DNA of 63,862 nt, counting the filler, from Sluysia triapertura (taxonomy: Eukaryota): NCBI GenBank assembly GCA_046118255.1. It is 4 parts of 4 records of this genome, joined end to end, with 100 filler letters (N's around TTAATTAATTAA, not from the genome) between each part and the next. Parts side by side here need not be neighbours in the genome. Positions count along the whole stretch, not along the records: positions 1 to 17,529 come from JBJNIA010187833.1; positions 17,630 to 37,932 come from JBJNIA010026616.1; positions 38,033 to 52,924 come from JBJNIA010245209.1; 1 more part is not named here. One strand, given 5' to 3'. Both the position numbers and the translations under genes were made by a program. The notes beneath the pieces are model-generated. The model had not been told where the DNA came from. It searched no databases and saw only the letters and a list, made by a program, of their open reading frames with translations. This document shows positions 10,204 to 46,950 of the stretch, in pieces (the first letter of the stretch is position 1; each line of letters opens with the position of its first letter).

Positions 10204-11044
10204 TACGGCAAAATAAATAATTGAAAAGGGTCCAGTCACAGTAAACAAATTACAACGCATAGTTGGCGTTCTTGTAACTTAAAGTTAATAACCTTAATAT
10301 ATTTATTCAAAAAACACATCTAATACGTCTCTAACTTAGAAACTTATGTAATACAATAAAAAAATTCAACTAATAACGAGTTTATTCAATAATGATTTAT
10401 ACATAATAACTAAAAAGTATTCAAAAGTTAAAAGAAAAGAATCAAATCATTATTTTATGATTAAAATTCTTGTGAGGCCTTTAATCAAATTTTCTCAAAA
10501 TTTTCTCAAAATTTTCTCATTAAACCTGGTTCGTACAATAAAATAGTAAAAATGAAATTTAAGTATATTTTAATATTTTGATTATAAAAATCAAAATGGC
10601 CTTACAATAAAAAGATTTAATCTATCATAGACAGAGAGAAAACTGGAACAAGTAGAAAGCCAGAACGAAATGCCAAAATACCAAGTGAATTAAACCAAAA
10701 TAATTAGGAATTCCAAACTCCAAAATGACGGAATAAAGCGAATTATGTTGAAAGTTGTCTCAATGTATAACCGTAAAAATGACTAATGCGCTTCCTTATG
10801 ATTAACTGTGGGTACTTATACAAATCCACAACTAATCATAGGCGAGTAGAATTCTAGAATGTTCCAGAAAATTCTAGAACTTCTTTTCTAATTTAATAGT
10901 AAGGAATTTTCTTTTTAGAAAATAAGTTTATTTTTTGGAAAATAAACATTTCTAAAGTGATTTTAGAGGTTTTAAAAGACTTACAAATAATTTTTGAGTA
11001 TTTTACATGATTTTAGAGGGTTGTGATGACAACCTAACAATACG
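10204..11044 (+). mobile_element. Non-autonomous dispersed repeat carrying a heat-shock element array (most complete copy)
   Basis: 5' TACGGCAAAA...GGGTCC..T.ACAGTA.AC, internal CAAAATGGC, HSE at 10851-10880, 3' GATTTTAGAGGGTTGTGATGACAACCTAACAATACG. Homologous blocks at 2130, 33438, 38033, 42655 and 46525. Confidence 0.7.
10851..10880. promoter_or_regulatory. Heat-shock element: six perfect alternating pentamers
   Basis: aTTCt aGAAt gTTCc aGAAa aTTCt aGAAc matches the HSF consensus of inverted nGAAn repeats. Confidence 0.75.
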
Positions 11045-11109
11045 ATTCTGAAAGCTGTATTGTCATTAAAAAGGTGAATATTTCTTTATTGTAGAAATAG
11101 TAGAGTTTA

Positions 11110-11380
11110 TGAAAATAATGGTTGATCATTAATCAATGTTTGTGTTCTATGCCTACTAAAATCTGACAGGTCGTATTATGTAATTGTCAAAGATGTTGAT
11201 GTCGATATAATTCTCAAAGGAGGTTCAAGTGATTTATGTGAAAGAACTTTTCATTGTACAACTAAAGAATGATTGGATGATGATAAATTACAAAAGGAAA
11301 TGCTTAAAATTTTAGAACGCAATAGAAAATTTACAACCAGGAAAGAAATTAAGTATTATTCAGGTCCTAAAGTGCCATGA
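11110..11380 (+). pseudogene. Decayed ORF of a repeat family, ending just upstream of a tRNA-like sequence
   Basis: Frame ENNG*SLINVCVLCLLKSDRSYYVIVKDVDVDIILKGGSSDLCERTFHCTTKE*LDDDKLQKEMLKILERNRKFTTRKEIKYYSGPKVP* has two internal TGA. Homologous DNA at 7540-7790 (-). Confidence 0.45.
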
Positions 11381-11417
11381 TGGCATATTGACTATAATAA
11401 AATAAAATCGTTAAACG

Positions 11418-11489
11418 GGGCTGATAGCTCAGTGGTAGAGCATTCAAGCTGTGCACGAGAGGTCCTGGATTCAATCCCCGGTCAGTCCA
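11418..11489 (+). tRNA. tRNA-like sequence or pseudo-tRNA (tRNA-Cys-like body, ambiguous anticodon loop CTGTGCA)
   Basis: 7-bp acceptor stem GGGCTGA/TCAGTCC, D arm GCTC-AGTGGTA-GAGC, T loop TTCAATC with 4 of 5 stem pairs, discriminator A, then TTTT. The anticodon stem is poorly paired. Confidence 0.7.
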
Positions 11490-12452
11490 TTTTACGAAGT
11501 CTAACACAGGTCCATTTTATTTTATTAAATTATTGGAAAATTACGTAAGAATTTTTGGGAAATTTTGATATTTTTGGTTGCGTCACCCTTGGTTTATTGG
11601 TGATTAATGTTTATTAGTATTCTACTTGACAGTTTATAGTTGTTTTAGTTACTTTGAATATTAAGTTTCATTAGTGAGACTTGAAAATTGTGATGGTGGT
11701 TTAATTCATCTGTCATGCTTCTTTAATTGTAATAATAATATTGTAATATTAAATGGATTTAAAGTTAGTTTTAAAATAAATTAAATGATAATAGATAATT
11801 TTTAAAGAAGCAACAATTTATTAGAATAAAATGTGTTGTAAAAACTTAGTAAGTTTTTAATTTAGTAAGTTAAGTTTATTTTCGAAAGGAAGTAAAATTT
11901 TAAATAGAGGCAAATTTCTCTTAATTAATTTGTAACTCTTATTTACTGAGGGCAAAGTCTAGTTTAAAATATAAATAAGAAAAAATTACAGATTCGTAAG
12001 GCTTTAATTATAATATAAATAATTTTCTGCTTTTATCTAATAAATACAGAATTACAAAAGTTATAACTTACCACAAAAACAAAGTAATTTTATACTGAGA
12101 CCCTCTATTAAAGTAAATAGTTGAGTACATAAAGTAAATTAGAAAAATGCACTGTTAATTTCTACAATTGTTCACTTCTAGTTACATTTATGTTGGGACT
12201 GGTGAAGGATAAGGCTAGATATAAAGGTTCAAGACTCAGGATGACAGAATAAGGTGAACATTATTGAGGAATTGAGATTGGGACTATGCTAAATTGTAAT
12301 GATAAGGTAAGCATAAGAAATACTCGAATGAAGATAAAACGATGAGAAATACGAAAAAAAATACCCTTTTACATGTTTTATTTATTAAAATACTAAAGTA
12401 CATTTGTTAATTGATTTAATTAAAATTTATTTAATATGATAAATCAATAAAA

Positions 12453-12716
12453 ATGTTTGCTCATGATATAGTAATATTAAATTTATTGTATAATGTTGAG
12501 TTTTATTAATGGTTTTAATGATGAAGTATTGCGAAGCATGTCAACGGAGATAACGTAAAAATTAGTTATTTTAATTGATTTTTGTAATTTGAAATTAAAG
12601 TTAAATATGTCTCCATGTCTAATTATTAATGAAGTATATATCAAATTGATGCTTATAAAGATACTAATTCAAATATGTTATTAAACTTGACGTGCGACGT
12701 GCGGTTGACGCACTAG
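12453..12716 (+). repeat. Decayed copy of the 'MFAxD...IQICY' small-ORF repeat
   Basis: Translates, with a frameshift and stop, to MFAHDIVILNL...FNDEVLRSMST...FCNLKLKLNMSPCL...VYIKLMLIKILIQICY, matching ORF 21714..21908. Confidence 0.7.
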
Positions 12717-12914
12717 TATTAATGCATAATACTCCTGTGAGAAATAGATTTATTATTTCATAAATTTTATTTTTAAATTAAGTTGACAAATTACGTTATT
12801 GCTATAATATCAATGTAACAATGATTTTAAATTTTAATTAGATGATATTAAGAAGATAAAGGCATTGTTGACCACAAATCCTATTATTATTAGATAATTA
12901 AAATTAGATTGAAT

Positions 12915-13015
12915 TTGAACATAGACGGAAATTTCTGCCGAAATTCAATCAGTAAATTAGTCCGCTTATTACCGCCTAAAAGAGAATAGACAGCATTAAT
13001 TTCCGTCTTGTTCAA
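12915..13015. repeat. Small inverted-repeat (MITE-like) element
   Basis: TTGAACATAGACGGAAATT ... AATTTCCGTCTTGTTCAA, 18-19-bp arms with one bulge. Confidence 0.6.
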
Positions 13016-13255
13016 TTTCTGAATTTTAATTTCCTAAAAGCATCATAAACTGCTATATAAGCAGTTACACTTGTGCATAAAGTTAGAAAAAAGAAAAAGA
13101 TTGAACTAAGACTTAAGAGGATTAAGGGAGGCTTTCTGGCTGTAGGGACACTGCTTCAGTTCATCGGTGGATGGCGGTGTACTTGAAGTTTTTTCTTTGG
13201 CAATTAGCTGGAATCAAATAGTTTGGTATAAAGTAGGGTGTGAAGGTTAGTGAAT

Positions 13256-13301
13256 TATTTTGTATTGATTGTATTTTGTATTGATTGTATTTTGTATTGA
13301 T
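13256..13301. repeat. 16-bp tandem repeat (about 3 copies) in an LTR-like segment upstream of the Gypsy pol fragment
   Basis: TATTTTGTATTGATTG repeated about 2.9 times. Confidence 0.85.
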
Positions 13302-13474
13302 ACGGGTGCCAAGATTTGGATTGTGTCACCCCTGATTGTGATTTGTTTTTGGAGAGTAATTTACGTTATTATAAAGAATAATTTGTATTTTGTTTTGAGA
13401 GAGTACTTTGTATTTTCGTTGTTATAAATAGTAATTTGTATCATTTAGTTGTGATTTTGTGATAATTAAAAGAA

Positions 13475-14019
13475 TATATCGAGATTCTGAATTTGTTTAG
13501 TGATAATTCCCATAAACAACATCTCGACCAAGTTTTAAAACTGCTGGCAGATCACAATCTAATCATCAAATCAAAGAAATGCCAATTCTTTCAATCTAAA
13601 ATTGCATTTCTTGGCCACGAGATCTCTTCTGACGGCATCGAACCATTACCAAGCCGTACAGAAGCAATAAGGAATTTCCCGCAACCAGAAACAGTCACGC
13701 AAATGCGGAGTTTCCTTGGCCTAGTAAATTACTGCCGCAGATTCCTACCAAAACTGTCCGAGATCTTAGCACCACTAACTGCCTTATCATCCGGAAAAAA
13801 GACGCGAATAATAAATTGGAATGGAACTTCGTTAGCTGCATTTCAAGAAATCAAAGAACACATTACCAAAATGCAGAGTCTAGCGTTTCCATTACCAAAC
13901 AAAAAAAATTCATTTTAACAACCGATGCGTCAAACATAGCAGTTGGTGCAGTTTTAACCCAATATCACAACGAAGTGCTGCAACCAATCGAATTTTACTT
14001 GCATAAAATCGACTCTTAG
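13475..14019 (+). mobile_element. Ty3/Gypsy LTR retrotransposon pol fragment (RT C-terminal half + RNase H start), frameshifted
   Basis: KCQFFQSKIAFLGHEIS, MRSFLGLVNYCRRF, then after a frameshift in an A-run FILTTDASNIAVGAVLTQ...PIEFY. A degenerate YIDDILIFS-like stretch (YIEILNLFS) lies at the start. Confidence 0.93.
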
Positions 14020-17529: not shown

Positions 17530-17629
17530 NNNNNNNNNNNNNNNNNNNNNNNNNNNNNNNNNNNNNNNNNNNNTTAATTAATTAANNNNNNNNNNNNNNN
17601 NNNNNNNNNNNNNNNNNNNNNNNNNNNNN
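17530..17629. other. Artificial contig spacer (44 N + TTAATTAATTAA + 44 N)
   Basis: Identical 100-bp structure at three sites. The 12-mer gives stops in all six frames. Confidence 0.97.
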
Positions 17630-19931
17630 TTACAGAGGTGCCAACTACTAGTTATAAGACGCTTACACTAAAATATAGTTTAGTAAATAATGCAGCAATA
17701 AAAAGAGTTTTTTTGAAAAAAAATTGAACGTTAAGGGGTTAAAATGGATCTAAAAAAGGAAATTAATTTTACACTTAATATATCCTAGGTTTTAAAACAA
17801 ATTAAAGCTATATAAATTAAATTCTGCCAAAAAAATGTCAACTAAATTAGTAAATGGATACACATAAAATTCAACATATATTAATATAAAATGTAATTCT
17901 TACAAAGTAATGTTCACAATAATAATTAATTTATACAAAATAAAAATATTTTACCAAATGATAATTATCTATTATAATTTGAATTCAAAGTTATAGAAAT
18001 TTACAAAATTATCAACTTAAAGTTATTAATTAGAACTTTTACTAATTTATGAAAACACGATTTTAACAACAATCGTTTTAAAGGATTGACCGATATTTTA
18101 ATTAGAATTTTCGTGGATTTTACTACTTGTAAAACCTTAAATGTAAATTAACTAAAATGATTATTAAGAATTCAGTAAAAATGAAATCAGTAAAATGATT
18201 ATGAAGAATTTCTAACAGGATTCCTTTCCAATAAACCACAATTAGTTGCCTAAAATAATTGACCAAAAATATATATCACCAAAAGAAATTAGATTCACCA
18301 ACAATTAACTCATCAAAGTTAAAAAAATTTTTAAAATGATTGCAGAAAACTTCTATTGAAAAAATAGTATTTTGTAAGCATATTTACATTTTAACTAATA
18401 GTTTAGATTGGTAGGAATTATTATTTTCAATTATTTTCATTTTCATTTGGTAAATTATAATTGGAATATGATAACTAATACGAAAATTATAAATGAAATA
18501 GTAACTAATATACAAAATTGGTAACTAGTACATAAATTAATAATATAATTTGATGATTAAACAATTATAGAAATAGAAATAATAAAAATTGTAATACAAT
18601 GATAAAATTATAATACAAAAAATATAATTATTAATTAAAAATTACCATTCCGTAAATAATGACATGTAACGTGTTATTAATTGACATGTTAACATAATTT
18701 TATTATCAACTTCAAGGTTATAAATCTCTAGGTATTAAAAATTAATACCAGGAGTGACTTAAATAAATCATTAGACGTTGACGTCAGTATTAACAGCTAC
18801 TAAAAACAATAAATAGAAAAGAAAATTATTAACCATTTTGTAGAACCCCTAATATTTATTTTGAGTCGTCCGCTGAAGAATAGGCCTCAATCTCATTGAG
18901 GCAGTGTCCTTAAAGCTAAGAAAGTCTTTAATTTCTACTTTTTTTCCATGTTTTTGTGTTCCGTTTTTTCTACAAAAATATCACCGATTATATAACAGTT
19001 TCCAAATCAAGACGGATAATAAACTATTCATTCTTTTTAATCGGTCCTAAGCCGACTAATTTTAATGATTAAATTCCAATAGTAATTTTGGCCTTTACCA
19101 AATTTTATTATCTTTTGTAATTATGCAAAGGTAGTAGGATTTGTGATAAACAATCTCCTTATCTTTTCAGCATAATTAAATTAAAATTTAATATCATTAT
19201 TATATAGCTATTTGTGAGAATATTAACTGGATTTTTGTGTTTCTACTAAATTTTGATTTTATTATTTATTTTCATTTTAAATTTTGTATAAATTTTGTAT
19301 ATTATTATATTTGAATTTCACATTAATTATTACATTAACATTTTTAATTGAATTAAATTTATTAAATTTTTAGATTAAATAAAAATAAATTAATTAATAA
19401 AATAAATCAAAGTATAAATATTTTTATATAGAGTTTAAAAAGTTTGTTTAATTGAATTAAATTTTTGTTTATACCAATCAAATGAAATTAAGAGAAGGAA
19501 AACAAATATGGCTGCTTTGAATTCAGTATATAGTGCTGAATTTTTAGCAGTTATATGAACAATTAATTATTGATCACCGACCAAATCCAAAATCCATTCC
19601 ATGAAAGTAAGAATATTTGTATTAAATTTTTCAATTCTCACCGTAACTGGGAAAATTTAAAATATACTCAAAATAACATTTTATTTTACGCTTAGACCAT
19701 AATATGGCTAATTCAAATTAATTTTAAAATATCTCCCATTAAAATTTTATTTTAAGTGGTAAATTGAATATTTATATTGTAAGACATATTAAAGACGTAT
19801 TTAAATCTGTGTAAATAATGTTTTATTTATTTTATTTTTAACTATATTATTTTATTTATTTTTGACTTTATTATTTTATTTTGACTATATTATTTGAATA
19901 CATAAATAGTATACTAAAATAAATTTAAATA

Positions 19932-21550: not shown

Positions 21551-21685
21551 CGCATTTTGCAAGTTAAGTTCCTTTTCAGATAAACCATTGCATAATCTAT
21601 CAATAACGCTAATTATTAACTTAAATTAAGGATAAAATCAATGAGATAGTAAATTTATTTTTCATATAAATCTTTTGTATAATGT

Positions 21686-21908
21686 GTTGTCAACCGTACG
21701 TCGCCCGTCAAGTTCAGTAACAGATTTGAATTGGTACATTTATGGGTATTAATTTAATATATACTTTACTTAAACTTAAACATTGTAACATATTTAACTT
21801 TAATTTTAAATTATAAAACGATGTGCTTCGTAACACTTTATCATTAAAAATACTAATAAAACTCATTGTTATACACATATCTAATATTATTTTATCATTA
21901 GCAAACAT
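21686..21908 (-). repeat. Copy of the small-ORF repeat with an open 64-aa frame (MFANDK...IQICY)
   Basis: ORF 21714..21908 is homologous to 12453-12716, including the downstream ACTTGACG.GCGACGT.CGGTTGAC. Confidence 0.7.
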
Positions 21909-22757
21909 TTTTATTGATTTATCAAATTAAACAAATTTTAATTAAATTAAATTTTAAATTAAATTAATTAAATTAACAAATACACTTTAATACATTAACA
22001 TATAAAACACTGTAAAGAGTTATTTCTTCGTATTTTTCATTATTTTGCCTTGACTCAAATATTTTATTGTTACAATTCATTATAATACTTTATCTTAATT
22101 CCTCAATGATGTTTATTTTATTTTATTATCATGAGTCATAACCCTTATGTTTCTTCTTATCATTCGTAAATCCCAACAACAGTAATAGTAATAATTCAGT
22201 ATAATAATTTATAGTTCATAATAATAATAAAATATTAATAATAATAATAAAAATAAAAATATTAATAATAAATAAGGCTAACGGTCTTAATTAATCATTA
22301 ATTAAAAGTACGTGCATTAAAGATAAAGACCTTTTCAGGTAAAGTTACTAAATAGAAAAGCACTATAAATAGTGCCATAAAAATTACAATCAACATTAAT
22401 TAACTCCAGATTACAATAATTATTTTTTCAAAAAGTACTTACTATTTGTTATCAATTTCGCTCAAAGACAATAACGTTATTATTATTTGGCAACTATTTT
22501 TCAGAAGCAAAATTGTGCTATTCAAACAAAAAATTTATTGCAAACACTAACTTTTTATTTATAAGTTTGGTATCCTTAAATATTCTTAAATAATTTATTA
22601 AATAATTTTCTCCGACCACTTTAAATAGGTTGTTAAAATCTTTTTCAAAATCAGCGGATTTCAGTTAAATTTAATTGAAAATTTATTATTTATTTGGATA
22701 TATAAAACGTATCATCCAAAATTTAATCATCAGCGCTCCTGTTAGACTTCACTAAAT

Positions 22758-22901
22758 TGACTGAAGCGATACGAACCCGGGCCCTCTTACTTCACAGTTG
22801 TGCGGTTCGATGTTCTGACCTCTAAGCTATCAGCCTCGTCTACAATTTTACTTTATTATAATCATTATACTATCATTCATCTAAATGGCACTTTAGGCCT
22901 G
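22758..22901 (-). repeat. Second tRNA-like copy with a conserved upstream flank
   Basis: The reverse complement CAGGCCTAAAGTGCCAT...TATAATAAAAGTAAAATTGTAGACGAGGCTGATAGCTTAGAGGTCAGAACATCG...CTGTGAA...GAGGGCCCGGGTTCGTATCGCTTCAGTC aligns to 11361-11489. Confidence 0.7.
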
Positions 22902-25930: not shown

Positions 25931-26379
25931 TTTGAATGATTTATAGTTAGTGGTGCTTAAACATAAAACATGTTTTTGTATATTTATAAATTTCATAATT
26001 CTCTACTTTGAAACTTTGTTATTCAGTAGATGAAATGAGAACACTTCCAAAAAATAATCCCTAATGTGTCACATTTTGGAGTGAAAATTAATATAAGCCC
26101 TGTCTTATTTTCTGGGACATACGTTAAAAGTACAAGCGGATATAAATATAGTTGTAGTGTATAATAAATAACAAATAAATAAAATGGATAAAAATATGAT
26201 TATAATTATATTATAGAATAAAACTGATTAAGAAGAAATTATGATAGCACAGAATTGAGAAAATATGTAGCTGCAGTGTAATGTCAGTAAAAAATACTAT
26301 ATAATTATAATATGTCGTATTAGAATAATTATTTTCTTTGAGACCTATATAAAAAAGTTAATTAACAACAAAATCCAAC

Positions 26380-26544
26380 CGAATAGCTAGTGACATTGCT
26401 TCAGCTGCAGCGGTACCTTCGTCAAGCAAACTTGCATTTGCTATTTTCATGCCTGTTAAATCTGTAATCATAGTTTGAAAGTTGAGTAAGCTTTCCAGAC
26501 GACCTTGTGAAAGTTCTGGTTGATATGGTGTATACGATGTGATC
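26380..26544 (-). CDS. GLDC: Glycine dehydrogenase (decarboxylating), exon 4
   Basis: (W)[54 protein letters not shown](R). AG/GT boundaries, 165 nt, phase-compatible with exon 3. Confidence 0.97.
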
Positions 26545-27222
26545 CTATGAAAATATTGAAAAATTATCTCATTGAATAAATTAGTTTAACCTTTTAACTG
26601 TGGCTGTCTTCAATAAGCGATCTGATGAATTTCTCCGGGAACGAGTGTCGCTTATCTATGTTATAAATACCTGATTTCATTTAGACACGCAGGACATAGA
26701 AACTTACATAATTTATAAAGAATTATAAAAAATTATTTCTATTTTAATTCTTATAAGTATTGAGAAAATTTCAAATTTGAAGAAGTTCAACTTATATTTT
26801 AGAGGCAAAAATATAAGTTATAGAAATATACATCTACATAAGTCGAATTTCCATTCTGCATCAAAAATAATCAATAGAGAAAATATTACATTTTAGGAGT
26901 TCGTTTAATGGAAGTTTTACTGTACAATTTTTACTAGGAGGTTAAAATGAAACATTTTGCGGGAAACTCCAATTGAAATTTTCATTTTACACCAAAAATA
27001 GACACAGAGATAGCTTCAACTTACAGAAGGATGTAAGAAGAATGTAATAAGTATTGTTCTTGATAAAGTATTGTTCTAAAACAAAATAAATAATTTTTAT
27101 TTTTTGCCTTTTTTTACGTATGGGCGGCTTGCCTATTAAATATACATCCGTAGTTAAATGGTTAAACAAATAAAATAATTTTAATGATATATTTATATAA
27201 AATAATAAACATATTCGCCACA

Positions 27223-29235: not shown

Positions 29236-30466
29236 CTCATGTAAAATGAATTTTCATTTACTAAATCTTTCCAACTGTATAAATTTGACAATCAATACTG
29301 GATAAAAAATTCTTCATAAAATCGGTTGTTAATTTTTCTATTTATGGTTTTTTAATAAATCAAAAATTGAATTATTCAAATAACTATTATTATTTTTGTT
29401 ATTAATGATGATTGGATGTCCAATCCGAACAAGCAAAATCTTAGTATAGAGGTAACATTGATTGGACGTCCAATAAATTGCTATATTTAGTGAGTAAGAA
29501 TTACGAGCATGTATGCATGCCAATTAAGATATAATATTGAGTACACTGAATGTAATTAATTATCATCAGTCGACAGTTCATAAGGTTTGTTAAATGTTGA
29601 CAGGGTATGATTAAAAAAACATATGTGCAATATAATTAATTTTGATACCGCATTAAAGTAGTGATAATAAAAATGATTATCATTATTGAATAAAATAATA
29701 ATTATAATTATACCAAATAAATTAAAATGCCATGAAAATTCCGCATAAATCTTTTGTTTTCTTATTACACAAACTTTATTCTTTTAAACCTTAATATTTC
29801 TAAACGTAAACTTAATAAAATTCTTTTAAAATCGTGTAGAAAATGTTAAAGGAATGTTATTTTGATTTCAATGTTTAAAATGGTTTCAAAGTGTTAATTT
29901 AATGTTTTTCGGTGATATTAGAGATTGAAGGTTAAAGATTGTAAACCGGAAATGTTTTGGATTGATTTTAAGATGTATATTTGATAGTTTAAGATGTAAA
30001 TTGTAATTCTGGTATTATGAAATTGTGGATTAAAATGATTTGAATAAAATTTAATGTGCGTTAATGGTTTTGAATGTAGGTGTGATTTTAGTGTTGTAAA
30101 GTTGTAAATTTAAAATGTTTTGAAATGTGAATGGTTTTAATGGATCTAAAAAATAAAATATAGAAAAGGTAATTGTACAATGTTAATGAATGTAATTGAG
30201 TTAAAAAGTTTTTAATGAATTTTTAAATGTACGTTATTAATTTGAAAGTAAATATAATTTTAATATTATAAAGTTATGAATTAAAATGTTTTGAAAAGAT
30301 TAAATAAGGTTTTAATGGTTGTACAAGGTAAAATGTAAGATGTTAGGAGAGATAATATTTTGTGTAAAATAATAATTTTAATTTTGAATGAGAGGTTTTG
30401 CCACCAAAATAATAATAATTATTATAATAATTATGATAATTATAAAAATGTAATTGTAATAATAAC

Positions 30467-30602
30467 CATCCAAGATTTTCAAACATGTTTCTAGCTATAG
30501 GAGCAGGTGTTATAGTATTATGATAACCCATTCCGATGTAGGATCTCCATATTTGATTTTTTCGTGCCACTTTATAAAGTTCATTCATTAATTCTCCTTC
30601 AC
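30467..30602 (-). CDS. GLDC: Glycine dehydrogenase, exon 3
   Basis: (S)[44 protein letters not shown](W). AG/GT boundaries, 136 nt. Confidence 0.96.
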
Positions 30603-30833
30603 CTTAACAAATATTGTGCTAGTAAATTTTAAATATCATTTTTTACTTTTTGCAATTTCTGGGTTTTTTTCCAAGTTATAAAATAAGGAAAAATAATGGT
30701 ATGATTAAGCAATTCAAGATTCATAAAGTATCAAATATTGATAAATCAGACTTATAAAATAAAATAAAGTAAAGATAATCTAATTCAATTATTTTAAATT
30801 GGAAAGATAAAGTTTTATATTGAATTACTTAAC

Positions 30834-31446
30834 AAAAGTAACCGCAAACTTGAATAAAATTTAGATATCAAAAACGACAAATGTAATTTCTTCTTTCATG
30901 TAATTTTATGTTACTATTCATTTCCTTCTGCGAATAGTAGCCTTTGGAATGATTTTTGTTACGTGATATTATTGACGTCATTGCTTGATTTTTTTCAGCG
31001 TGCCTTTCTGGATTCTCATTCTTAAAAATGCAGCAAATGACTTTTTATTCGTTATTATGCAAGGACTAGCTACAAGCATGTTGAAGAAAGATGGGAGTCA
31101 ACAATGTTCAATCTTGTATCCACATTTGAAGTAACTGGAAGTGTGTCAAATGCTCCTAAAGAAGGTCGTCCGAAAACAGTTCGTTCAACTGAAAACAAAA
31201 TCCTTCCACCAGGAATAAATTGAGATGAACATTTCTCGAATCTCACTCCACCGTATCTTGTATGACATTGGTCTAAAACCATGCAAACTTCATCTTCTTC
31301 TTGTCCTAAATGAGGATGACAATTTTTTTGCGAGAAAAAAAAATTTTTGCGACAATTTTGTGAAGAATCACCAGATTTTTTCAGATTGCATCTTATGGAG
31401 TGATGAAGCTTGCTTCTTCAAAAGTTGGAGAAAAGTACTACCATAA
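30834..31446 (+). mobile_element. 5' fragment of a Tc1/mariner transposon (rosa/DD41D-like), same family as 57491-58538
   Basis: Left end AAAAGTAACCGCAAACTT.AATAA. Peptides FEVTGSVSNAPKEGRPKTVRSTEN, LHRILYDIGLKPCKLHLL and ILWSDEACF. Confidence 0.85.

Positions 31447-32404: not shown

Positions 32405-32444
<40 letters not shown>
32359..32444. repeat. Compound (GAT)n/(AAT)n microsatellite
   Basis: Directly visible. Confidence 0.95.
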
Positions 32445-32446
<2 letters not shown>

Positions 32447-33027
32447 GCCACTAAGTTAGAAGGTCATAAGTTAATTGATGTTTAAAATCAAATTAATTTT
32501 GTACTTTTACATGACTAGAAAAAGTACTTTTATCATTTAAATAATAACTTATTTGAATGAGATTTATTATTTAATTATGTATGATTATAATTAATATTCG
32601 AATAAATTCCAAAACGTATATTTCACGTAATTTTTTAGGTATTTTATTTGCAGAAGAGCTTAGAAATATAATTGGGTCTTACTTTGTCAGATGATTTATC
32701 ACAAAAACTTTTTATAATATTAACATTGATTTAAAGAATTAAATTAAAATAGAAACATGGAAAAGTTTTAATTTATCATAGTATTGATAAAACAGATAAT
32801 AATGATATATCATGGCATAATTTTGTGAATAAATAATGGATTTATTATGATAAGATTTGCTGACAATTGCTAATTTGACTTTGAAGTTAGTTTAATGTAT
32901 AATAATAAGTACATTATTATACAATATATTTTCATTTGCGATTATAATATATGTGAAAACATTCCCTTCTGCGGATTATTATTGTTATTATCATTATTCG
33001 ATTAAGATTTTTAGTATCACAACTAAC

Positions 33028-33106
33028 TCAATGGTTCGTTCAATTTCATATTGCCTTTAAAACGAATATTTTCTGGCATTGCCTTGGTAATTAATTCATC
33101 AAAAGT
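33028..33106 (-). CDS. GLDC: Glycine dehydrogenase, exon 2
   Basis: TFDELITKAMPENIRFKGNMKLNEPL(S). TTTAG acceptor, GTTAGT donor, 79 nt, phases fit exons 1 and 3. Confidence 0.92.
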
Positions 33107-33437
33107 CTAAATTATAATTAATAATTATTTAATTTTTTTCAAAGTTCGATATTATTTTTAATGTTTCAATATTAGATATGTCTCCAAACTAAATTCTTTG
33201 TTCTGTTTATGTATACACACATGTGAATTTAGTATGAAGGTTAGATTTAACATATATAATGAAGTTAATGCATTACTAGGTAAAATGGTATTTAGGGCTC
33301 TTAATGCCTTTAAAATTTGAAATAAAATTCTTAAATAAATCGACTTAAGATGGTTTAATTCGACAATAAATTTAAAATTAGACTGAACACCTTTTAAATT
33401 ATTTTGACATTACCGGATACCCAACTAACACTTAGTT

Positions 33438-34150
33438 TACGGCAAATTATTTTTGAGCAGAGTCCGGTTATTGTAAACGTCTTACGTCGTGAAAAGGGTA
33501 TGTCATAATAACAATATTCCTTAATGTTAAAAACTCAATTGTTTCAAAAAAAAACTTCTTAATTTAACTAAAAAATTCTAATTCTAATGAAATAATGAAA
33601 CGATAAACTATCACATAAGTTTATTCAAAAAATCACAAAACGATTTAAAAATTTACAATTTACGTATAATATAAAGAATAGAGACAAAGATTAAATTTTA
33701 CAATTAAAACTTCTAGGGTCTTTAATTGTTTTTGTTATAAATTAAATTTAAGTGGATTTTGGCCCTCGTTATATCGGTGAAACTTTAAAAATAAAGTTAG
33801 GTTGATTTTTAAATACTAATTTACGCAATTAGTGTCACTTTAATAACTTACGATAAACATAGAATGGAAAGTGGGTTCTGTTCGAATAATATTGACTGTC
33901 AATTGTTTGATTTTCGATCGATAAACCAAAATTGTATAATTCAAAATGGCGATTTTGAATTATAAACTGATGCTAGTTTATATTCTACTCATCAGCCAAT
34001 AGGAATCGATGAAATGTTCTAGAATATTCCTGAAGCTTCTATTCTATTTTTTTAGTATCTGATTTTCTTTTTTAGAAATTTTATTTTCTTTTTTGGAAAA
34101 TAAATATTTTTAAAGTGATTCTAAAAGATTTTTAAAGCATTTTAGATGAT
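33438..34150 (+). mobile_element. HSE-bearing repeat copy in GLDC intron 1
   Basis: 5' TACGGCAAA...GAGTCCGGTTATTGTAAACGTCTTACG, CAAAATGGCG, AGCCAAT, HSE, TTTTTTGGAAAATAAA.ATTT.TAAAGTGATT. Confidence 0.7.
33996..34040 (+). promoter_or_regulatory. CCAAT box + heat-shock element (five perfect pentamers)
   Basis: CCAAT at 33996-34000; gTTCt aGAAt aTTCc tGAAg cTTCt at 34016-34040. Confidence 0.7.
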
Positions 34151-34363
34151 TTAATGAAATCAACATTTTAAAATCGTTTGAATCTAATTGTTGTTTTAAG
34201 TGTTCAGCAATCATCGCCAGCATCTGTATAATAATATGGCGGCTTATTGAAATTGATGATTTGTATAGAAGCTTAAAACAATCATACCTAAAACAATAAT
34301 GGCTAGAATATATGAATTATTTCAATATGATGGTGCCACGATATTTTATTACTTATATGTATA

Positions 34364-34800
34364 CAGTGGTGGCCAAATTATTAGACTAAAGACTATTTTT
34401 GTGATAAAATTCAACATTTTTCAAGGATACTGTGAAAATATTAATCAAATGTTTTTATGACAATCAGGGTGCAACTCCTCATGAGGTCTTCTTCTTACTA
34501 ATACTTGAAAGGAAGACTTGTCACTAAAACACACTTCACTCCAGTCATCCTCAGTTAAATGTTGGGGTTGCGTAGCCTATGCCAACTTTTTACTGATCAT
34601 CCCTGGGTCAAATAACTCGCAAATCATTGTATCTGCAAGTCTCATTCTGACTGTTCCGGCACTAACGTGAACTCCTGCAAAGTCATACTGGTTCATCTTA
34701 GAAAGTTTCACCAAATATCTATCATTTCTCACTGATGTTTTCTTATTTCTGTCTCATTTTCCAAAACAGCTACTTTTTGATGGACCACTAAAGAGAAACA
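34364..34800 (-). mobile_element. Decayed Tc1-like transposon
   Basis: TA|CAGTGGTGGCCAAA terminus. Minus strand RKTSVRNDRYLVKLS, GVHVSAGTVRMRL, WSEVCFSDKSSF..VRRRPHEELHPDC. Confidence 0.85.
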
Positions 34801-35436
34801 TATTTTTTCTGTTTTAGTCTCAACAATATAACACACACTTATCATCTAGATTCTTTAATAAATGATCTTAGGATCGTAATTATTCGTTAATATTCGCATA
34901 AATTTTGCATGATGGTCATCGCCCTATAAGGATATTTGTTAATTTGATCGGTTTGGTAAGTGATCACATCGAATAAACAAAAGCTTTATGACAGTGAGAA
35001 TAAGCGATCAGTTGCTGATGAGGTATTAAACATCCCAGTTATTTCACCGACAAGACAGAACGAATTGATAAAAAATGAGGTATTTTTATTTCTGACTCAA
35101 ACTAATTATCCGAAACGTTTTAGTGAATCAAAATGAATTAATCTTGTTATAAATCTTTTTCCTGTTGTTTTGAATATAAGTACAATACAAAAACTGAAAC
35201 CATGAATAAAAATGAAGCTAGAAGCACAAATAAGACTCGAGAGAATAATAAAATTAAGATTAAAGTAAGGAATAGATGTTAAAGATAAAAATAAAAACAA
35301 AGGCATACGTAAATGTAACACACGCCTTAAATATCGAATGATACACCCTTAAATCTATAATGTAATACATAAACCCTTAAAACAAGTACTAAACATTATT
35401 ATATTAGTGTCAAAATTACTTGTACATGTATATGTA

Positions 35437-36155
35437 TTGGGTGATTGAAAAGTAACTCCCTATTTAAAATACCTACAATTTAATTCAAATGCCGTAATAT
35501 GTTTCTCAACTTTTTTTGTATATCATACTTAATGTATAGCAATTTAATCTATGCTCTCTGTGTTTTCTTTTTAGATCTGTTTTGTGAATTTGTTTTAATT
35601 AATTTGTTTGAAATTTCAAAACACTACAAAAATGGTTGGACGTCTTACATCACAGATAGCTGCACGTTACGAAGTTTGGAGATCCATTGTTCAAGTGCAA
35701 AGATAGTGGAGAACCATTAAGGGAAAACATGCTCAAATTGAGCCAAAGACGATCAATAATTGTCATGGAAAACTCATGACCGCTGATACCCGAAGAAGCA
35801 GTTGCCCTTCCAAATCCAGAGAACCTGAGGTAGTGCAAGTTGTTCAAGAAATCTTTACCCGTAGCCCGTAAAAGTCAATTCGACAAGCAAAAGAAAGTGG
35901 GTTCTCCTTTCACTGTGTAGTGCTAAAAATAAGCCTAAATGGTGTACTTGGAAGCCGCACTACTGTCAAGCATTCTCTGTCGGCTTGATCTCTTGAGTGA
36001 TGCGATTCCTTGTCGACTTGAGAAACTGATAGCGAATGAATTTTAAATAAAATCCGTGCAATATACTTTATTTTCGTATTTATTGAACGTATAAATTATA
36101 TTTCAATTATAAACTACAGTTATTTAAAATAGGAAGTTACTTTACAATCACCCTG
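35437..36155 (+). mobile_element. Internally deleted Tc1/mariner element (rosa/DD41D-like) with both TIRs
   Basis: TIRs GGGTGATTGAAAAGTAACTCCCTATTT / AAATAGGAAGTTACTTTACAATCACCCTG. HTH remnants SIVQVQR*WR, FTRSP*KSIRQA, WKPHYCQA. Confidence 0.85.
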
Positions 36156-36851
36156 CATATCTACACCAATTTCAAATGGTAATTTTTATAGTTAGTACTT
36201 TACATATTTTTTCAAAACTGTATTTTATTTATTTCAGATTGTAAGAGTCAAAATAATATAATTTTATAAGATATTCCTGTGTTTTATGTAATGAAAAAAG
36301 AAAAAATTCATTTTCAATTTTCAAATGCAAATTTAATATAATATTTAATATAATGCACAGCAATCAACAAATCAGATCTCTCAAAACTGGTGTCCATGCT
36401 AAACCATGCAATGAGAATCCAAACAAAATGCAAATAAACCACTAATTGGAAGCTCTTATAACTTGTATTAGTTCATAAACTGGATAAAATGTCTTATCTT
36501 TTCTTTAAAAAAAGCATTAATTTATATGAATTGTCACAGTGATTTGTGTTACTTGAAATTTTGAGACGAATTCGAATTCAAATTCGAATATAACCTATTA
36601 TAAACCTTAAGCCTTCATAAGAAAATAAATCATCCAACATTTCTTCAAGTTAATTTTGCTTTCAAAACAATTTATTATCAATTACTAGAGTTAATACAAT
36701 CAAAGCATTTAATGCAATCTAAAATTTGTGATTCTTATTAACTGCTTAATTACCATGTTATATTTCTAATCTTATTCCTAACACCGATTGAAATATAAAT
36801 ATCATTAAATATAAATGTAATTATAGCTTAAGAATTAAAAAAATTCTATAC

Positions 36852-37010
36852 TTTAAAACCAATTTTTTCCAGCATCATTTGTTTTTCTGAATCATTAGGT
36901 CCAATATGTCGTTTTTGGAAGTCATTTTTTTGATTACGAAAATAATCCAAATTACTGAAACGTACAGATAAAGCATTTAATCCTTTATAATTCTGAAACA
37001 ATTTATTCAT
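36852..37010 (-). CDS. GLDC: Glycine dehydrogenase, exon 1 (with probable mitochondrial transit peptide)
   Basis: MNKLFQNYKGLNALSVRFSNLDYFRNQKNDFQKRHIGPNDSEKQMMLEKIGFK|GT, with the diagnostic F..RHIGP motif. 159 nt. Confidence 0.93.
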
Positions 37011-37932: not shown

Positions 37933-38032
37933 NNNNNNNNNNNNNNNNNNNNNNNNNNNNNNNNNNNNNNNNNNNNTTAATTAATTAANNNNNNNNNNNN
38001 NNNNNNNNNNNNNNNNNNNNNNNNNNNNNNNN
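37933..38032. other. Artificial contig spacer
   Basis: 44 N + TTAATTAATTAA + 44 N. Confidence 0.97.
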
Positions 38033-38108
38033 ATTTTTTAAGTGATTTAAATTAAATTTTAATAATATATTTTTGATAATTTTATGGGTTGTGATGGCAA
38101 CCTAACAA
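38033..38108 (+). mobile_element. 3' end of the HSE-bearing repeat, truncated by the gap
   Basis: TTTTTAAAGTGATTT...GGGTTGTGATGGCAACCTAACAA. Confidence 0.65.
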
Positions 38109-38141
38109 AGGTAAAGTAATAGAATAAAGCAGAAATTTAAC

Positions 38142-38191
38142 GTGAGTTCACTAATGTACTGGGCTTACCAGTTAGGGCCAGCCGTTGGATT
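38142..38191 (+). repeat. About 50-bp GC-richer dispersed repeat; inverted copy near 53240-53292
   Basis: GTGAGTTCACTAATGTACTGGGCTTACCAGTTAGGGCCAGCCGTTGGATTT versus reverse complement GTGAGTCCACCAACGTATTGGGCTTACAGACTAAACGGCCAACCGTTGGATTT. Confidence 0.75.
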
Positions 38192-41100: not shown

Positions 41101-42654
41101 TATATTTTACTTATAAAATCATCTGCTCTTAGTTTTTCTAAATAAATCAATGTCAAATTAATTATAGTGTAATTTGTGTGTATGTCTGTGTTTACTGATA
41201 TATCACAAATCAATATTTAAATCCTTCATGTTTTGTTTATTTTACTAATAAATATGTCATTTTGAACTGTCAATTTATTTATTTTATGTATAACTTATTA
41301 ACGCGCCCTTGATAACAAATGACCTTGACTTCATATGTGCCATTAATTCTTTTTCTTAATTTATTTCATTTACTGTCTTTCTCTACCCCATCTCTTTTTA
41401 TTACTTGTGTTTGTGTGTGCACACAATTCGTTTCATAGAATCAATCATTTAATTAATAAACATACGATGATGTCTATGCTCATTTGGTATTTCGATTATT
41501 TATGATGATAAATTTGTATTAAAAAATCATATTTAGACACATATACACAATAAATGAGTAATTATAAATGTAATATGTAATATGAAAATAAAATAAATCG
41601 AAGTAGGCAATGCAGTACAGTAGTCATATGTACAAGTGTTACTAATAATAAAAAAGTGGCTACACACAATATAAGTAACTCTTGCATCTGTTTACTATAT
41701 GTATATGTAGTAATTAATTTGTTATTGCCAATTAATTTTCTGAAATGTCGACTATGTGATGTAAATGAATTTGGTGCATTATTTAGTGAAACATCAATAA
41801 CACATGTGTATTCGGTATATTTGATGCTATCATCAAGAAAAGAATGTTTTTATTGCAAAATTATAATTGTATTATTCTTGAATCATTCAAGTGATAATAA
41901 AGAATTACTTAAATAATTTAATTTATATATTTAAGTAAATATAGTAATGTAATATAATTAATCTCAACTTAGAATTAGTTTTACTGAAAAGAATATTAAT
42001 TAAAAGTTTTTTTTGTACTTGTTCAGATATTTGTGACAGATGAAATCAATCGTAGAATGATATTACAGTGTCTATTTTAGATGCATGTTAATAAATTGGT
42101 GTCGCTTTTGCTTATTTAATTACAGTTGACTCTTAAATTATTTAGAATGAAAATCATGTGGTAAATAAATTAAATTAAACTCTAAAAGCAGATGACAAAA
42201 AATGATATGAGATAAAGATTCAAAATATTATTTACAATTGGTCTTACTTATTTATCCACTTGATTTCTGTTTGATAATAAATAGAAAACAATGTCCGAAT
42301 ATTTATGTTATTATATAAAATTCTTTTGCAATAATACTCTTAATTTAGCCAATTAAAATTCAACATAACCAAAATAAAATTAATGCAGATATAAATAAAT
42401 AATCAAATTTATATTATTTCTATAACATCACAAATAGATTATTTTCTAATAAAATTAAGAAAAATCAAGAAAAAATAATGATGTTTTGCATTGTCATAAA
42501 TTTTTATGAATATTTTATTGGATTACGTTTTTCTAATGACTGATTTAACAAGTTTTACGATTGATTCATTTTCAGTTATTATTCAACGTTCATTTAAAGA
42601 TTTGTGTAATTATCTAACCGTGTAATTTTGGTGTGACTTTCTTAACTTTTAATC

Positions 42655-43296
42655 TACGCCAAAATATTATTTAGCAGGGTCCGCTTACAGTATACGACTT
42701 ATGACGTGAAGTGCGCGTATATGTAATTAATCACTAATCAGTAAAATTCTATAATTTTCCTTTTTACAAGGTCCTATTCTAGCTTGTAAAAATTCAATCG
42801 ACAACAATAACAAAGATAAATTTCGTAATTAAAACATTGTCAGGATCTTTAATTTTTTTAATAAAAGAATCTTTTAAAAATGATTTAACCATCAATAAAT
42901 CGGAGATCAAAATTAGTTTAAAAAAGTTATTTTAAATTGATTTTGAATTTTAACTCCGAAAGTTAAAAATATTTTAATAATTCATGAATAATTTATGAAT
43001 TATCATGGAATAGAATAATTGAAAATTTCCAAAAAATTTATCTTCGAATAATAAATTTGGTCATCCTTCTGAATGTGAATGATGGATTAGGAATTGTAAG
43101 TCGTCGGATTTTGCGATCTCTGTCTAACAATCGGTAAAAACCATAATAAATAAAAATGTGTGCGCAGCTCTATGATTCAGCTGCACCAGTAGCCAATCAA
43201 AAACAAATAGAAATTTGGAATTTTCTAGAATATTCTACAACATTCTTGTTCTTTTTTTATTTATTAGGATTTTGAAGAGTTGTCCTAGCAACCTAA
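42655..43296 (+). mobile_element. HSE-bearing repeat copy
   Basis: 5' TACGCCAAAA...GGGTCCGCTTACAGTATACGACTTA; AGCCAAT at 43191; gGAAt tTTCt aGAAt aTTCt aCAAc aTTCt at 43217-43246; 3' GAGTTGTCCTAGCAACCTAA. Confidence 0.7.
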
Positions 43297-43824
43297 ATAA
43301 TTTTAAGAATCTGATTTTATTGTTGCATCAAAAAAAACGTAAAAATAATGTCAATGAGCTATGTCCATTTATAATTATTATTTTATTTTCTTATTTTAGT
43401 TACTAGAGAAATTTTTCCAAACATCTCAATAGTTATATTGAAATATTACTAAATTATAAGAGAAATCACGTATCCATTGTAATTTATATAAACCCATTTT
43501 AAATGAAAATTCTTAATTGTTTTAATACTTTATTGGCAAAATTAAACTGAATTGTTTAAATAAATATATAGAAATATTTTTATTTTTGACAAGTATATTT
43601 CAAATCACTGGTGCACACGGTTCTGCAAGTGCATAAGTATCAAAATGATATTAATTTTGGGGCTAATTTATGTAAATTTCCGAAATATTTTGGAAATTTT
43701 AAAAAAGGTGAAAATTTATGATCCTACCATCACCAAGAGTGCACAAAATTGTTCAGAGCTATTTTAATTTTTTACAATTATTAAACATATTATAATTTAA
43801 TAAATATCACATTCAATTTAAAAT

Positions 43825-44177
43825 CATTTGCGTTTCATAAAACGTGAATTTTTAATTATTATTTCCGATTTTAATTTTATGTTTGTTAAATCTCACGTAG
43901 AAAAAAGAAACAAAGAATTGCACACTGATGTTTTGAGTAGAATTAAAGCCATTTGTGCAGATAAAAATTTAAACACAGTAACAACAAGAAAAACAACATT
44001 TATTTGTTTATAAATCTTCAGCAACATGCGAAGAAACCAAAAAGCTAAAAGAATATCTAATATGTGTGGTAAATGCAACAATTATGTTTGTCCTTTACAT
44101 CCAAAGACATTTTATTAAAAATAAAGAAATTTGTATTGTGGAAAATTTTATTTTCTTAGTGCAAAGAAAAGGTTAAA
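43825..44177 (+). mobile_element. piggyBac 3' relic
   Basis: KREFL...SHVEKR, then the Cys-rich tail NMCGKCNNYVCPLH. Ends ...AAAGG|TTAA. Confidence 0.65.
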
Positions 44178-45599
44178 TATTAAATATTAAATATTAAACC
44201 AAACTAATTGTCCAAGTAATAATATCTCATATAATACCATATTTTAATAAAAACAAGAGTAGAATTCAAAATTATGACAGTAAATTATAAATGATTATAT
44301 TATCTTTTGGAAATAATAAAACTTTGTAAACAAAAATGAATTTGTCATTAAGATATTATAATTTATACAAAATCCACAGTGATAATAAGCTAGATAATCG
44401 GTTGTAGACCATTTATGTTTCAAAAATATAAAATGAACTACCAAAGAATTTTAAATTACTGGAAGATTACGAAATATTTAAGAAATAGCAAGGTTATTTC
44501 CATTTTAAGCGTTTTTGAATTCTTGAAACTTATAATTGAAATAATTGATAAAAGTTTCCACCAAAATTCAGTCTAAAAATAACATTTTAATTTCACCACC
44601 AAATTTTCTATAAATAATACTTAAACATCAAAAAATATTTAATATTCAATATTATTAAGTAAAACATAACATGATTCACACATTTTAAAGCCAATAAAAA
44701 TCTAACTTCCTTCTATTTATAGTACTAAAAAAGTTATTGATTCTGAACATGAATTTTAATGTGTAAATGATTAAGGAAAACTAAGGAAGCTACTATTTTG
44801 AATAAGTTACAATAAAAACTTGTAAATTATAATGATTTTACATTTCAATTTTGTATTAATTTAATTAGAAAATATTTGTTTGTTCATCTATTCGAAAAGA
44901 TTATGCATATGAATGTGTAATTACTGAATAAAAATTGAACTTTACTAATTAATAATTATTCAGAATTAATTTATAAGAAATAATTCTTATTTTTGATAAC
45001 AAACATACTCTTAATTTTAAATAAATTTGACTTACAATTTATGCAAATAGAAATATATTTATTTTTTATTACATTAAATGAATCAGAGAAAAATAAAAAC
45101 TTAAATAACCAATTAAATTTATTAATCAATTAAGTAAGAAATAATAAATCAGTAGAAATATTGATATATTATTTTAAAACTAGATCATATCAAAAATCAT
45201 CAATGTCGTTCTTATAATTAATTATATTTGTAATAAACTCAGTGTCGTCGAATTTAATTTTTCATTATCATTTTTAGTTTTTGTGGAATTGTTTGTCCAG
45301 TTAAAAAAAGGTTTTTAATTTGAAAATGCTTACTTTATATTTTAGAATAGATTATTTAATTGATTTCATCTTAAGTTGGATTGTTAGATAATAGAAGAAA
45401 ATATGAAAAAATCAAATTAAATCTAATATAATAGTAATTTTAGATGAGTCACATGCAATGTGCCGCGATAAAATAATGATTTCATATGCAAGCATTTATT
45501 CAAAAACAAATATTAGTTAAAATAAAAAGATCATTGAAAAATTATTGACAGGCTTTTTCAATAATAATAATAATACATCCCTAAAATAATGGAATTAGA

Positions 45600-45960
45600 G
45601 TATTTCAGTTACGTTTTTCTTGGTACCATTACTCGATGGTCTGTTTACAAATTTATATTACACAATTATACTTTGAAACTTCGTTATAAAGTCTTCTTTT
45701 TCTGAAGAATTCTGCCAAATTGTTGATTATTTCATTAATCATTATTTCAGCTATTATTTCTGAAATAATAGCAAATAAAATTTTGTTCGTTAAATAATAA
45801 AATGTCTAATTGTAGGCAATACAGATATTAATTATAATCTTTTCTTTTCAGCATCTCTCAGAAGCTTCGTTGAAATTCCATATTATTCGGATAATACTAC
45901 AGTGATACACAAACAAATATTTTTGCGTTCAGTGAATATTTCCAAATGTCTTTCTTTAAC
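45600..45960 (-). mobile_element. Possible decayed hAT transposase N-terminus (BED finger-like)
   Basis: Minus strand DIWKYS..C..C...GISTKLLR with frameshifts. Confidence 0.3.
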
Positions 45961-46524
45961 GATTGATTCTCATTGTGTTAAATTTATATGGCATTTCGTT
46001 TTTGGTTTCTGTTGGATCTTTATTTTCAATTTATTGTTAACTTTATCATCTTTATGATTTACTTTTTAGGTGCACACAAAGTGACCATAGAATTAATTCT
46101 ACTAATTTGGTTTAAAACTGAATAAAGATATCAAAATGATTGTTATTGGGTCTTTTATTATGCAGTACTATCACTCTTTGTAGATATTATAGTACTTTTT
46201 TAAACTTTTCAATGTTTAAACATTGCAATAAAATTGTTGGAAATAATGAATTTCTAATACTTCCGATAAATTATACGATATTATCATAAATTTCGATACC
46301 ACATACTTCATTTATGATATTCATACAAATAACAAGCTCTAAAACATAGCTAAGTCCATTTAACATAATAATTATTATATCAGCTTTCTTTTTAGTATAG
46401 CTTTAGCGTCATTTTGGTAAATCATTTTAAAAACCATTATGATATCGATTGATATACAATCATTTAGAGATTCTCAGACTCATTCAATATCATAACACTC
46501 CTTACTTTATGATACTGTACCATA

Positions 46525-46950
46525 CGTATTGTCCTCACAACCCTCTAAAATCATATAAATCTTTAAAATCACTTAAAAAATAATTATTTTCCAAAAAGAA
46601 AATTATTTTTCGAAAAAAGAAAAATCGCTTCTAAAAATAGAATAGAAGCTTCTAGAATGTTATAGAATATTCCATCGATTTTCATTGGCTGATAACTAGT
46701 AAATGAGAATTGCCATTTTGAAATCCGCCATTTGCAAAATGTATTATTTGGAAATTTTAATTAGATGTTTTATTCGATTCGCAATGGATTTGGAGAAATT
46801 TTTATTTAATCCACGTTAATAGTAAGTTATTTTTTTAAGGTGATATTAATTTTAATTAATAAAATTAATATCCTAAAATACACTTAAATTTAAATTTCTA
46901 AAGAAAAAATTAGGTTACCTCGATATATTGAGAGTCAAAATACAGAGTAA
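46525..46950 (-). mobile_element. HSE-bearing repeat copy, reverse orientation
   Basis: CGTATTGTCCTCACAACCCTCTAAAATC is the reverse complement of the 3' end. aGAAg cTTCt aGAAt gTTAt aGAAt aTTCc at 46644-46673, ATTGG at 46684, then GCCATTTTG. Confidence 0.75.

Follow-up and report, generated by a model that had tools for sequence, protein, structure and literature searches.

Does the non-coding DNA of Sluysia triapertura hold a dispersed repeat family with a built-in heat shock promoter, and if so, is this promoter used by the element or by its host? The window analyzed here is a stretch of 63,862 nucleotides (GCA_046118255.1) composed of four contigs, which are separated by N spacers at 17530-17629, 37933-38032 and 52925-53024. 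Its GC content is about 25% without CpG depletion. The initial annotation of this DNA had proposed a repeated cassette of a CCAAT box and a heat shock element (HSE), which might place the element itself or host genes under the control of heat shock factor (HSF). The array regions of this family are predicted to be strong HSF binding sites, which in all likelihood remain from the stress promoter of a mobile element.

Copies and Block Order of the Repeat Family

The family comprises six copies or fragments scattered over three contigs, as annotated initially. The copies are non-coding. It is defined by a left box of about 55 bp (four copies) and a right module of about 200 bp (four copies and one fragment). 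Copies are named after their positions, with 46525r for the reversed one. Using leave-one-out nhmmer profiles, all four left boxes (2130, 10204, 33438, 42655; E values from 7e-4 to 2e-11) and all four right modules (10204, 33438, 42655, 46525r; 5e-4 to 4e-21) were regained, while the best outside matches had E values above 0.1, the 38033 fragment excepted. Family homology, resting on both profiles, did not depend on the arrays alone. Weak profile matches at 5240-5285, 17633-17671, 51011-51034 and 60583-60623 (E>0.09) were excluded as copies. The copies and their motifs are as follows.

2128-2603 (+): degenerate copy 2130; left box 2128-2182 (leave-one-out E 6.7e-6), exact AAAATGGCG 2499-2507, three-pentamer HSE 2589-2603; CCAAT and hairpin absent
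10181-11039 (+): complete copy 10204, whose left edge lies at 10181 or at 10204; it has the left box (10203-10257), the HSE, the T-rich block and the hairpin, with CCAAT decayed
10851-10880 (no strand assigned): HSE array of copy 10204, six of six perfect alternating pentamers
11019-11034 (+): right-end hairpin of copy 10204, 6-bp stem and 4-nt loop, followed by TAACA
33437-34151 (+): copy 33438 in intron 1 of GLDC; left box 33437-33491, AAAATGGCG 33943-33951, CCAAT 33996-34000, HSE 34016-34040 (five perfect pentamers); right hairpin missing
38033-38107 (+): fragment of a right end, located where a contig starts; TAACA follows its hairpin (38087-38102)
42632-43298 (+): complete short copy 42655, whose left edge lies at 42632 or at 42655; it has the left box (42652-42708), CCAAT 43193-43197, HSE 43217-43246 (five of six pentamers), hairpin 43278-43293 with a differing loop
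46527-47172 (-): reversed copy 46525r; middle 47172-46810 weakly aligned, AAATGGC twice, CCAAT 46688-46684, HSE 46673-46644 (five of six pentamers), damaged hairpin 46542-46527

The left-box and right-module blocks showed pairwise identities of 71-82%. For the middle part of about 500 bp, 10 copy pairs were compared with 150 nulls drawn from real sequence. Only the pairs 33438/42655 and 33438/46525r exceeded all nulls, two pairs were marginal (0.013 and 0.033) and six were at chance level, indicating that the ends and the promoter module are the parts that were kept. Because conserved end blocks enclose a barely alignable middle, the units of about 0.65-0.85 kb are, judged by their sequences, one old and diverse family. 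No match to it was found in 50,697 phage records or in GTDB genomes, as expected for an animal repeat.

Near one end the modules follow a common order: an AAATGGC-type motif, CCAAT, the six-pentamer HSE, a T-rich tract (46-61% T behind the arrays) and a terminal hairpin. The ordered blocks of the initial annotation were thus recovered as family and module order, whereas the term “cassette” overstated them, as no single copy holds all blocks. CCAAT stands 15-24 bp ahead of the array in three of the five array-bearing copies (33996, 43193, 46688), each time with NF-Y-type flanks, and was lost in copies 10204 and 2130. Exact AAAATGGCG was found in two of these five copies and AAATGGC in four. The hairpin is present in four of the six copies and absent from 2130 and 33438; in copy 10204 its DNA fold reached a z-score of -3.19, with 1 of 200 shuffles equally good. 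The left box of the reversed copy remained undetected by profile search.

Two copies are incomplete in other ways. Copy 2130 belongs to the family via its left box only, its right part being missed by the right-module profile; its three-pentamer HSE would fall within 600 bp with a chance of about 0.008. The fragment at 38033-38107 is truncated by the contig start and gave E values of 0.01-0.1 when kept outside the training set. The perfect HSE of copy 2130 and the extension of the reversed copy to about 47170 were added to what had been annotated before. Copy 10204 holds three tandem AAAATTTTCTC-type units in its middle (10487-10520), which are not common to the other copies, and repeated dyads were noted in copy sequence (TTTC-T6/7-GAAAA twice, TGATTTTARAG twice).

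Abundance and Conservation of the Heat Shock Elements

An HSF trimer occupies three inverted nGAAn units, and six can accommodate two trimers. The window was scanned for alternating GAA/TTC pentamers, and 30 order-3 Markov simulations of the window served as null. Perfect runs of at least three pentamers were observed five times (simulation mean 0.83), runs of at least four pentamers three times (0.03) and loci with at least five of six pentamers four times (0). The perfect runs are located at 2589-2603 (three pentamers), 10851-10880 (six), 34016-34040 (five), 43217-43236 (four) and 46644-46658 (three), with longer registers of five of six pentamers at 43217-43246 and 46644-46673. The four arrays reported initially were therefore confirmed in place and in 5-bp register. 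All five copies containing the region hold at least three contiguous inverted nGAAn pentamers, i.e., a canonical HSE. The share of HSEs inside the family, suggested earlier as a genome-wide check, was five of five canonical HSEs within the window. An isolated HSE-like array with four of six pentamers was noted outside the family at 45860-45889, 640 bp past the right end of the reversed copy.

For the core and spacer columns the six-pentamer register of four copies was used; copy 2130 was excluded because its array has only three pentamers. Core mismatches amounted to 3/72 compared to 10/47 in the spacers (Fisher p=0.0055), and each copy pair differed at 1-2 of 18 core but 4-5 of 12 spacer positions. 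With composition matched to the right module, 9.6 core mismatches were expected, and P(≤3) was 0.014. Neutral retention of at least five of six pentamers in four copies had a P of 0.012 at the measured rates and of 0.0006 at harsher ones. The three core substitutions all affect the G of GAA, and none is found in more than one copy, which fits selection on a source element followed by decay after insertion.

A Selfish Stress Promoter as the Preferred Explanation

We consider it probable that the arrays belong to a selfish stress promoter, which selection on source elements would have preserved and which is now decaying in relic copies. The sequences support a family with HSE arrays kept better than their spacers, beside an NF-Y-flanked CCAAT in three copies; CCAAT preceded by purines binds NF-Y. 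The copies would be non-coding relics of an old, diverse mobile-element family, and a six-pentamer array would seat two HSF trimers. Bound to the CCAAT box, which is 15-24 bp distant, NF-Y may prime the array in the manner of vertebrate hsp70 promoters, where a CCAAT factor and HSF cooperate (PMC3468683). Once activated by stress, HSF would have caused the source element to be transcribed, beginning close to the right end; planarian promoters carry T-rich tracts ahead of start sites (PMC10558129). The module would have been retained by selection on replicating source elements, for which stress transcription would be the window to multiply. Inserted copies would decay and mostly be passengers today, though in most of them the HSE is intact, and HSF binding to some could give rise to stray transcripts under stress. 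That the element itself may be under HSF control was accordingly the better half of the initial proposal.

Several observations were counted for this explanation. All five canonical HSEs of the window lie in the family, compared to 0.83 perfect runs by chance. Core mismatches are fewer than in the spacers and fewer than a matched composition predicts, the ends and the promoter module are kept around a poorly alignable middle, and the core substitutions are private. CCAAT followed by an HSE-like stretch gave three matches versus 0.01 expected. LTR (long terminal repeat) retrotransposons with HSEs, tested by heat in Macrostomum (PMC12801592), provide a precedent. Finally, TG...CA edges fit copy 10204, and each edge is found in two of four copies.

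We are aware that several points weigh against it. The GAA/TTC columns, proposed initially as a place to look for stronger conservation than in neighboring columns, were better kept than the spacers but not clearly better than the T-rich block behind them (2/54 versus 28/234 in three copies, p=0.085), and under milder divergence the neutral retention of at least five of six pentamers in four copies likewise has a P of 0.085. The pattern used to count CCAAT followed by an HSE-like stretch was formulated after inspection of the data. The conservation tests compared 3-5 related copies, and the array was picked by its own motif; because of these small, related samples and the motif-based choice we rate the core-conservation result as moderate. 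Copy 10204, which has the best array (six of six), has lost its CCAAT, and no TATA box was found behind the array. No target site duplication (TSD), primer binding site (PBS), polypurine tract (PPT) or linked coding partner was found, so that mobility is inferred from the dispersal.

Class of the Element

A selfish stress promoter could have belonged to different types of elements. A solo LTR of a Ty3/BEL-type element is our leading, though tentative candidate, a non-autonomous Helitron is possible, and other classes are given the same lower weight as the Helitron. The solo LTR was placed slightly ahead because an element replicating via RNA must be transcribed, which would explain a conserved promoter without an open reading frame (ORF). 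Searches of the copies for terminal inverted repeats, asymmetric terminal repeats, terminal direct repeats, TSD, PBS and PPT yielded nothing significant. Neither the terminal inverted repeats nor the TSD of miniature inverted-repeat or other DNA transposons were found in them.

TG...CA termini are a feature of solo LTRs (Ty3/BEL/Copia), which require neither PBS and PPT nor paired LTRs around gag-pol. Copy 10204 can be read as TG...CA from 10181 to 11039. The TG edge was found in two of four left ends and CA in two of four right ends, while sharp conservation among four copies begins 23 bp inside TG. The TG edge is common to copies 10204 and 42655, with 16/23 matches upstream of the box compared to 5-9/23 further out; the CA end is common to 10204 and 38033. 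For a TSD of 4-6 bp the best in-register match was 4/6 in copy 10204, whereas copy 42655 had no match, and a free search gave p values of 0.95 and 0.11; the TSD of old copies may have been lost. No TGG or purine tract was found at the ends tested in either orientation, and solo LTRs need neither. A Ty3/Gypsy-type reverse transcriptase-RNase H fragment at 13466-14016 (+), 2.4 kb behind copy 10204, was rejected as a partner, as other repeats lie between and no second copy follows. This fragment is isolated and frameshifted; adjoining it, unrelated LTR-type sequence was seen by eye on the minus strand (13010-13460).

A non-autonomous rolling-circle element would owe its HSEs to an autonomous RepHel element whose promoter carried them, as in Caenorhabditis, and would show conserved end boxes, a variable middle and a 3' hairpin. 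Consistent with this anatomy, neither TIRs (terminal inverted repeats) nor TSD were found in the copies searched, the right-end stem is kept with a variable loop, and CTAA starts at the last stem base in three of four hairpin copies. Furthermore, oyster non-autonomous Helitrons carry end boxes of 42-53 bp around a variable middle (PMC8268682), and C. elegans provides a precedent (PMC6927752). However, HLE1 Helitrons start with TC, end with a hairpin plus CTRR and insert at A|T (PMC11417382), while here A|TC starts one of four left ends and T follows CTAA in none of three cases. Asymmetric inverted repeats were not found (p=0.98 for 10204; p=0.04 for 42655, an AT-only match), RepHel was absent among the 147 scanned of 251 ORFs (≥45 amino acids), and a Helitron without ORF would profit little from a kept promoter. 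The link to Helitrons drawn in the initial annotation was thereby reduced to a resemblance. Features of HLE2/Helentron elements, as given in PMC3627910, were also not found, and the left box showed no fold in any of four copies (z 0.3-1.7).

Regarding short interspersed elements (SINEs) or structured RNAs, no Rfam or ARAGORN match was obtained in the units; the sole match was a tRNA outside the copies. This tRNA-His(GTG)-like gene (11418-11489, +) lies 380 bp behind copy 10204, and its 5' part with upstream flank is repeated at 22810-22876 (-) with 81% identity, possibly as a tRNA-derived SINE.

Host Genes and Further Alternatives

One copy resides in GLDC, the gene for the glycine cleavage P-protein. 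Exons 3 and 4 were recognized by the Pfam domain GDC-P, while translation and splice sites served to place exons 1 and 2.

36852-37010 (-): GLDC exon 1, ATG at about 37010
33107-36851 (-): GLDC intron 1, GT-AG, host of the copy at 33437
33027-33106 (-): GLDC exon 2
about 30466-30604 (-): GLDC exon 3
within 26361-26585 (-): GLDC exon 4

The placement in intron 1 annotated before was correct, with exon 1 ending at 36852 and exon 2 beginning at 33106 on the minus strand. Control of host genes by HSF, however, found no support in the window: the only copy placed in a gene (33437-34151) is intronic and antisense to GLDC, with its array about 3 kb past the start codon. Use of the family by host genes is possible. 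In its full form, i.e., a family recruited as enhancers through which neighboring genes, for instance GLDC, respond to heat or injury, with arrays maintained by present-day host selection, we regard it as unlikely. It would agree with the one copy within a gene, with the retention of at least three consecutive perfect pentamers in all five region-bearing copies (neutral P 0.06, range 0.008-0.23) and with Helitron HSEs that render neighboring C. elegans genes heat-inducible (PMC6927752). Besides the position of the GLDC copy, it is disfavored by the lack of copies in recognizable promoters and by the private substitutions at the key G of GAA. In Macrostomum only two solo LTRs were located less than 2 kb from mildly induced genes (PMC12801592), and Schmidtea transposable elements have little accessible chromatin under normal conditions (PMC10558129), although the present host may not be a planarian.

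Similarly improbable, in our estimate, is a GAA/TTC array that is no HSF site at all but was inherited passively, either as a short palindromic 10-bp repeat or as a site bound by a replication protein of the element or by a STAT/TEAD-type factor. In favor of this, the array amounts to a near-tandem 10-mer, other repeated dyads are present in the element, the array of copy 10204 folds (z -2.87) and the core versus flank difference was not significant. The array of copy 33438, in contrast, showed no fold (z -0.09), and varying spacers between constant cores are the signature of HSF. The two-base spacing in the GAAnnTTC and TTCnnGAA steps corresponds to HSF geometry, while STAT sites favor a spacing of three or four bases.

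Duplicated promoters of a stress-gene family instead of mobile elements, suggested by the hsp70-like layout of CCAAT and HSE (PMC3468683) and by a coding-like stretch behind copy 10204, are very improbable, since no two copies share the sequence past the right end, for which Pfam gave no match, the stretch recurs at 7561-7772 without the promoter module and has no credible relative, and one copy is antisense in an intron.

This stretch (11114-11324, +) and its counterpart (7561-7772, -) form a second, coding-like repeat with 66% identity and TGA stops at matching places. For the stretch behind copy 10204 no Pfam match was found and no Atlas match above 0.78 (48-amino-acid part); its single phmmer match was rejected as a summed FG-GAP repeat artefact. 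A gene with TGA read as tryptophan at 10991-11548, tied to the element, was likewise rejected, as 44 frames of at least 95 amino acids are open under translation table 4 and two other TGA-containing frames are equally long.

Neighboring Genes and Other Repeats

A Pfam scan of the window identified spliced animal genes, namely the GLDC exons, a cadherin exon and an M1 aminopeptidase. The latter (54111-56987, -) is intronless, comprises 958 codons and belongs to a divergent subfamily; a protein search gave two unnamed matches with 37-39% identity, and the best-ranked named matches had 25-29%. For the cadherin exon three matches at 25-30% were obtained. Neither search pointed to a close named relative, and a triclad flatworm as host is a guess from the 25% GC and the style of the genes, which served as no evidence here. 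No Pfam match was found for a 234-codon open frame within a GLDC intron (28552-29253, -) or for broken reading frames at about 700-950 (+), which we take to resemble the RNA recognition motif of an SR splicing factor. Repeat remnants are numerous. Degraded frames at 30911-31416, 57545-58329, 59605-60006 and about 34500-34800 resemble Tc1/mariner transposases by eye but stayed below the Pfam threshold. Two more dispersed non-coding repeat families with 60-72% identity were observed, one at 12138-12815, 21586-22228 (-) and 8557-8992, the other at 12806-13010 and 19008-19212 (-).

Relation to Known Elements and Implications

Mobile elements carrying HSEs are an already known kind in worms, flatworms and plants. 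As in Caenorhabditis, where Helitron1_CE and its derivatives hold most canonical HSEs (almost two-thirds in C. elegans) and a selfish origin was also proposed (PMC6927752), one family accounts for all five canonical HSEs of the window. The Caenorhabditis elements differ by dense HSE clusters (>10 per kb), Helitron identity and HSF-1 chromatin immunoprecipitation support, while the present family has one compact six-pentamer array plus CCAAT, without recognized Helitron termini. In that paper, HSE-Helitron enrichment was found in none of the UCSC genomes outside Caenorhabditis.

In Macrostomum lignano, LTR retrotransposons (Mag, CsRN1, Gmr1/Osvaldo, Copia) carry 1-4 canonical HSEs per LTR and, like the plant element ONSEN cited there, place them ahead of the start site, within a non-coding unit at the terminus (PMC12801592). 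Four LTR families with HSEs were strongly induced by heat, about 250-fold, and HSE mutation abolished the induction; ONSEN and Helitron1_CE are the other validated HSE-carrying elements named (PMC12801592). The Macrostomum elements are low-copy families (4-20 copies) with reverse transcriptase and paired LTRs (PMC12801592), in contrast to six diverged copies within 64 kb here, none of them tied to an internal region, PBS, PPT or TSD. Oyster Helitron-N_Cgi and Drosophila DINE-1 likewise have conserved boxes of about 50 bp at their ends, a middle that varies, a stem-loop at the terminus and frequent truncation on one side (PMC8268682); neither a microsatellite or satellite core nor subterminal inverted repeats were found here, and HSEs are not mentioned in the passages of that paper covered. 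The vertebrate hsp70 promoter (HSPA1A) shares CCAAT beside HSE and cooperation of CCAAT factor and HSF, but it serves a single gene and has TATA and GC boxes (PMC3468683), while neither a TATA box behind the array nor a gene was found here.

Our literature search, which apart from the papers cited covered listings and abstract openings, revealed neither this family nor any planarian repeat combining CCAAT with an HSE, although Repbase/Dfam may already name the family. A keyword look-up for HSF in two flatworm genomics papers (PMC11410931, PMC11398382) gave no mention.

If the copies are inert relics, the result would concern repeat annotation and call for caution when this genome is scanned for HSE motifs. 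There is a small chance that the window density holds genome-wide and that one unclassified family supplies most strong HSF sites. This would mean tens of thousands of sites per gigabase, each with an NF-Y priming site in an hsp70-type promoter, enough to titrate HSF and to make many host genes subject to regulation by stress or injury. Outside Caenorhabditis this would be the first mass dispersal of HSEs in the literature searched, possibly by an element type outside the end rules of both LTR elements and Helitrons. The density makes the family worth a genome-wide count. The family would add an independent case to the few validated systems, with unusual density and a compact layout of CCAAT and six pentamers. 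If the host is a regenerating flatworm, it would offer a direct handle on whether stress or injury wakes transposons through HSF, as well as a natural heat-inducible promoter for reporters.

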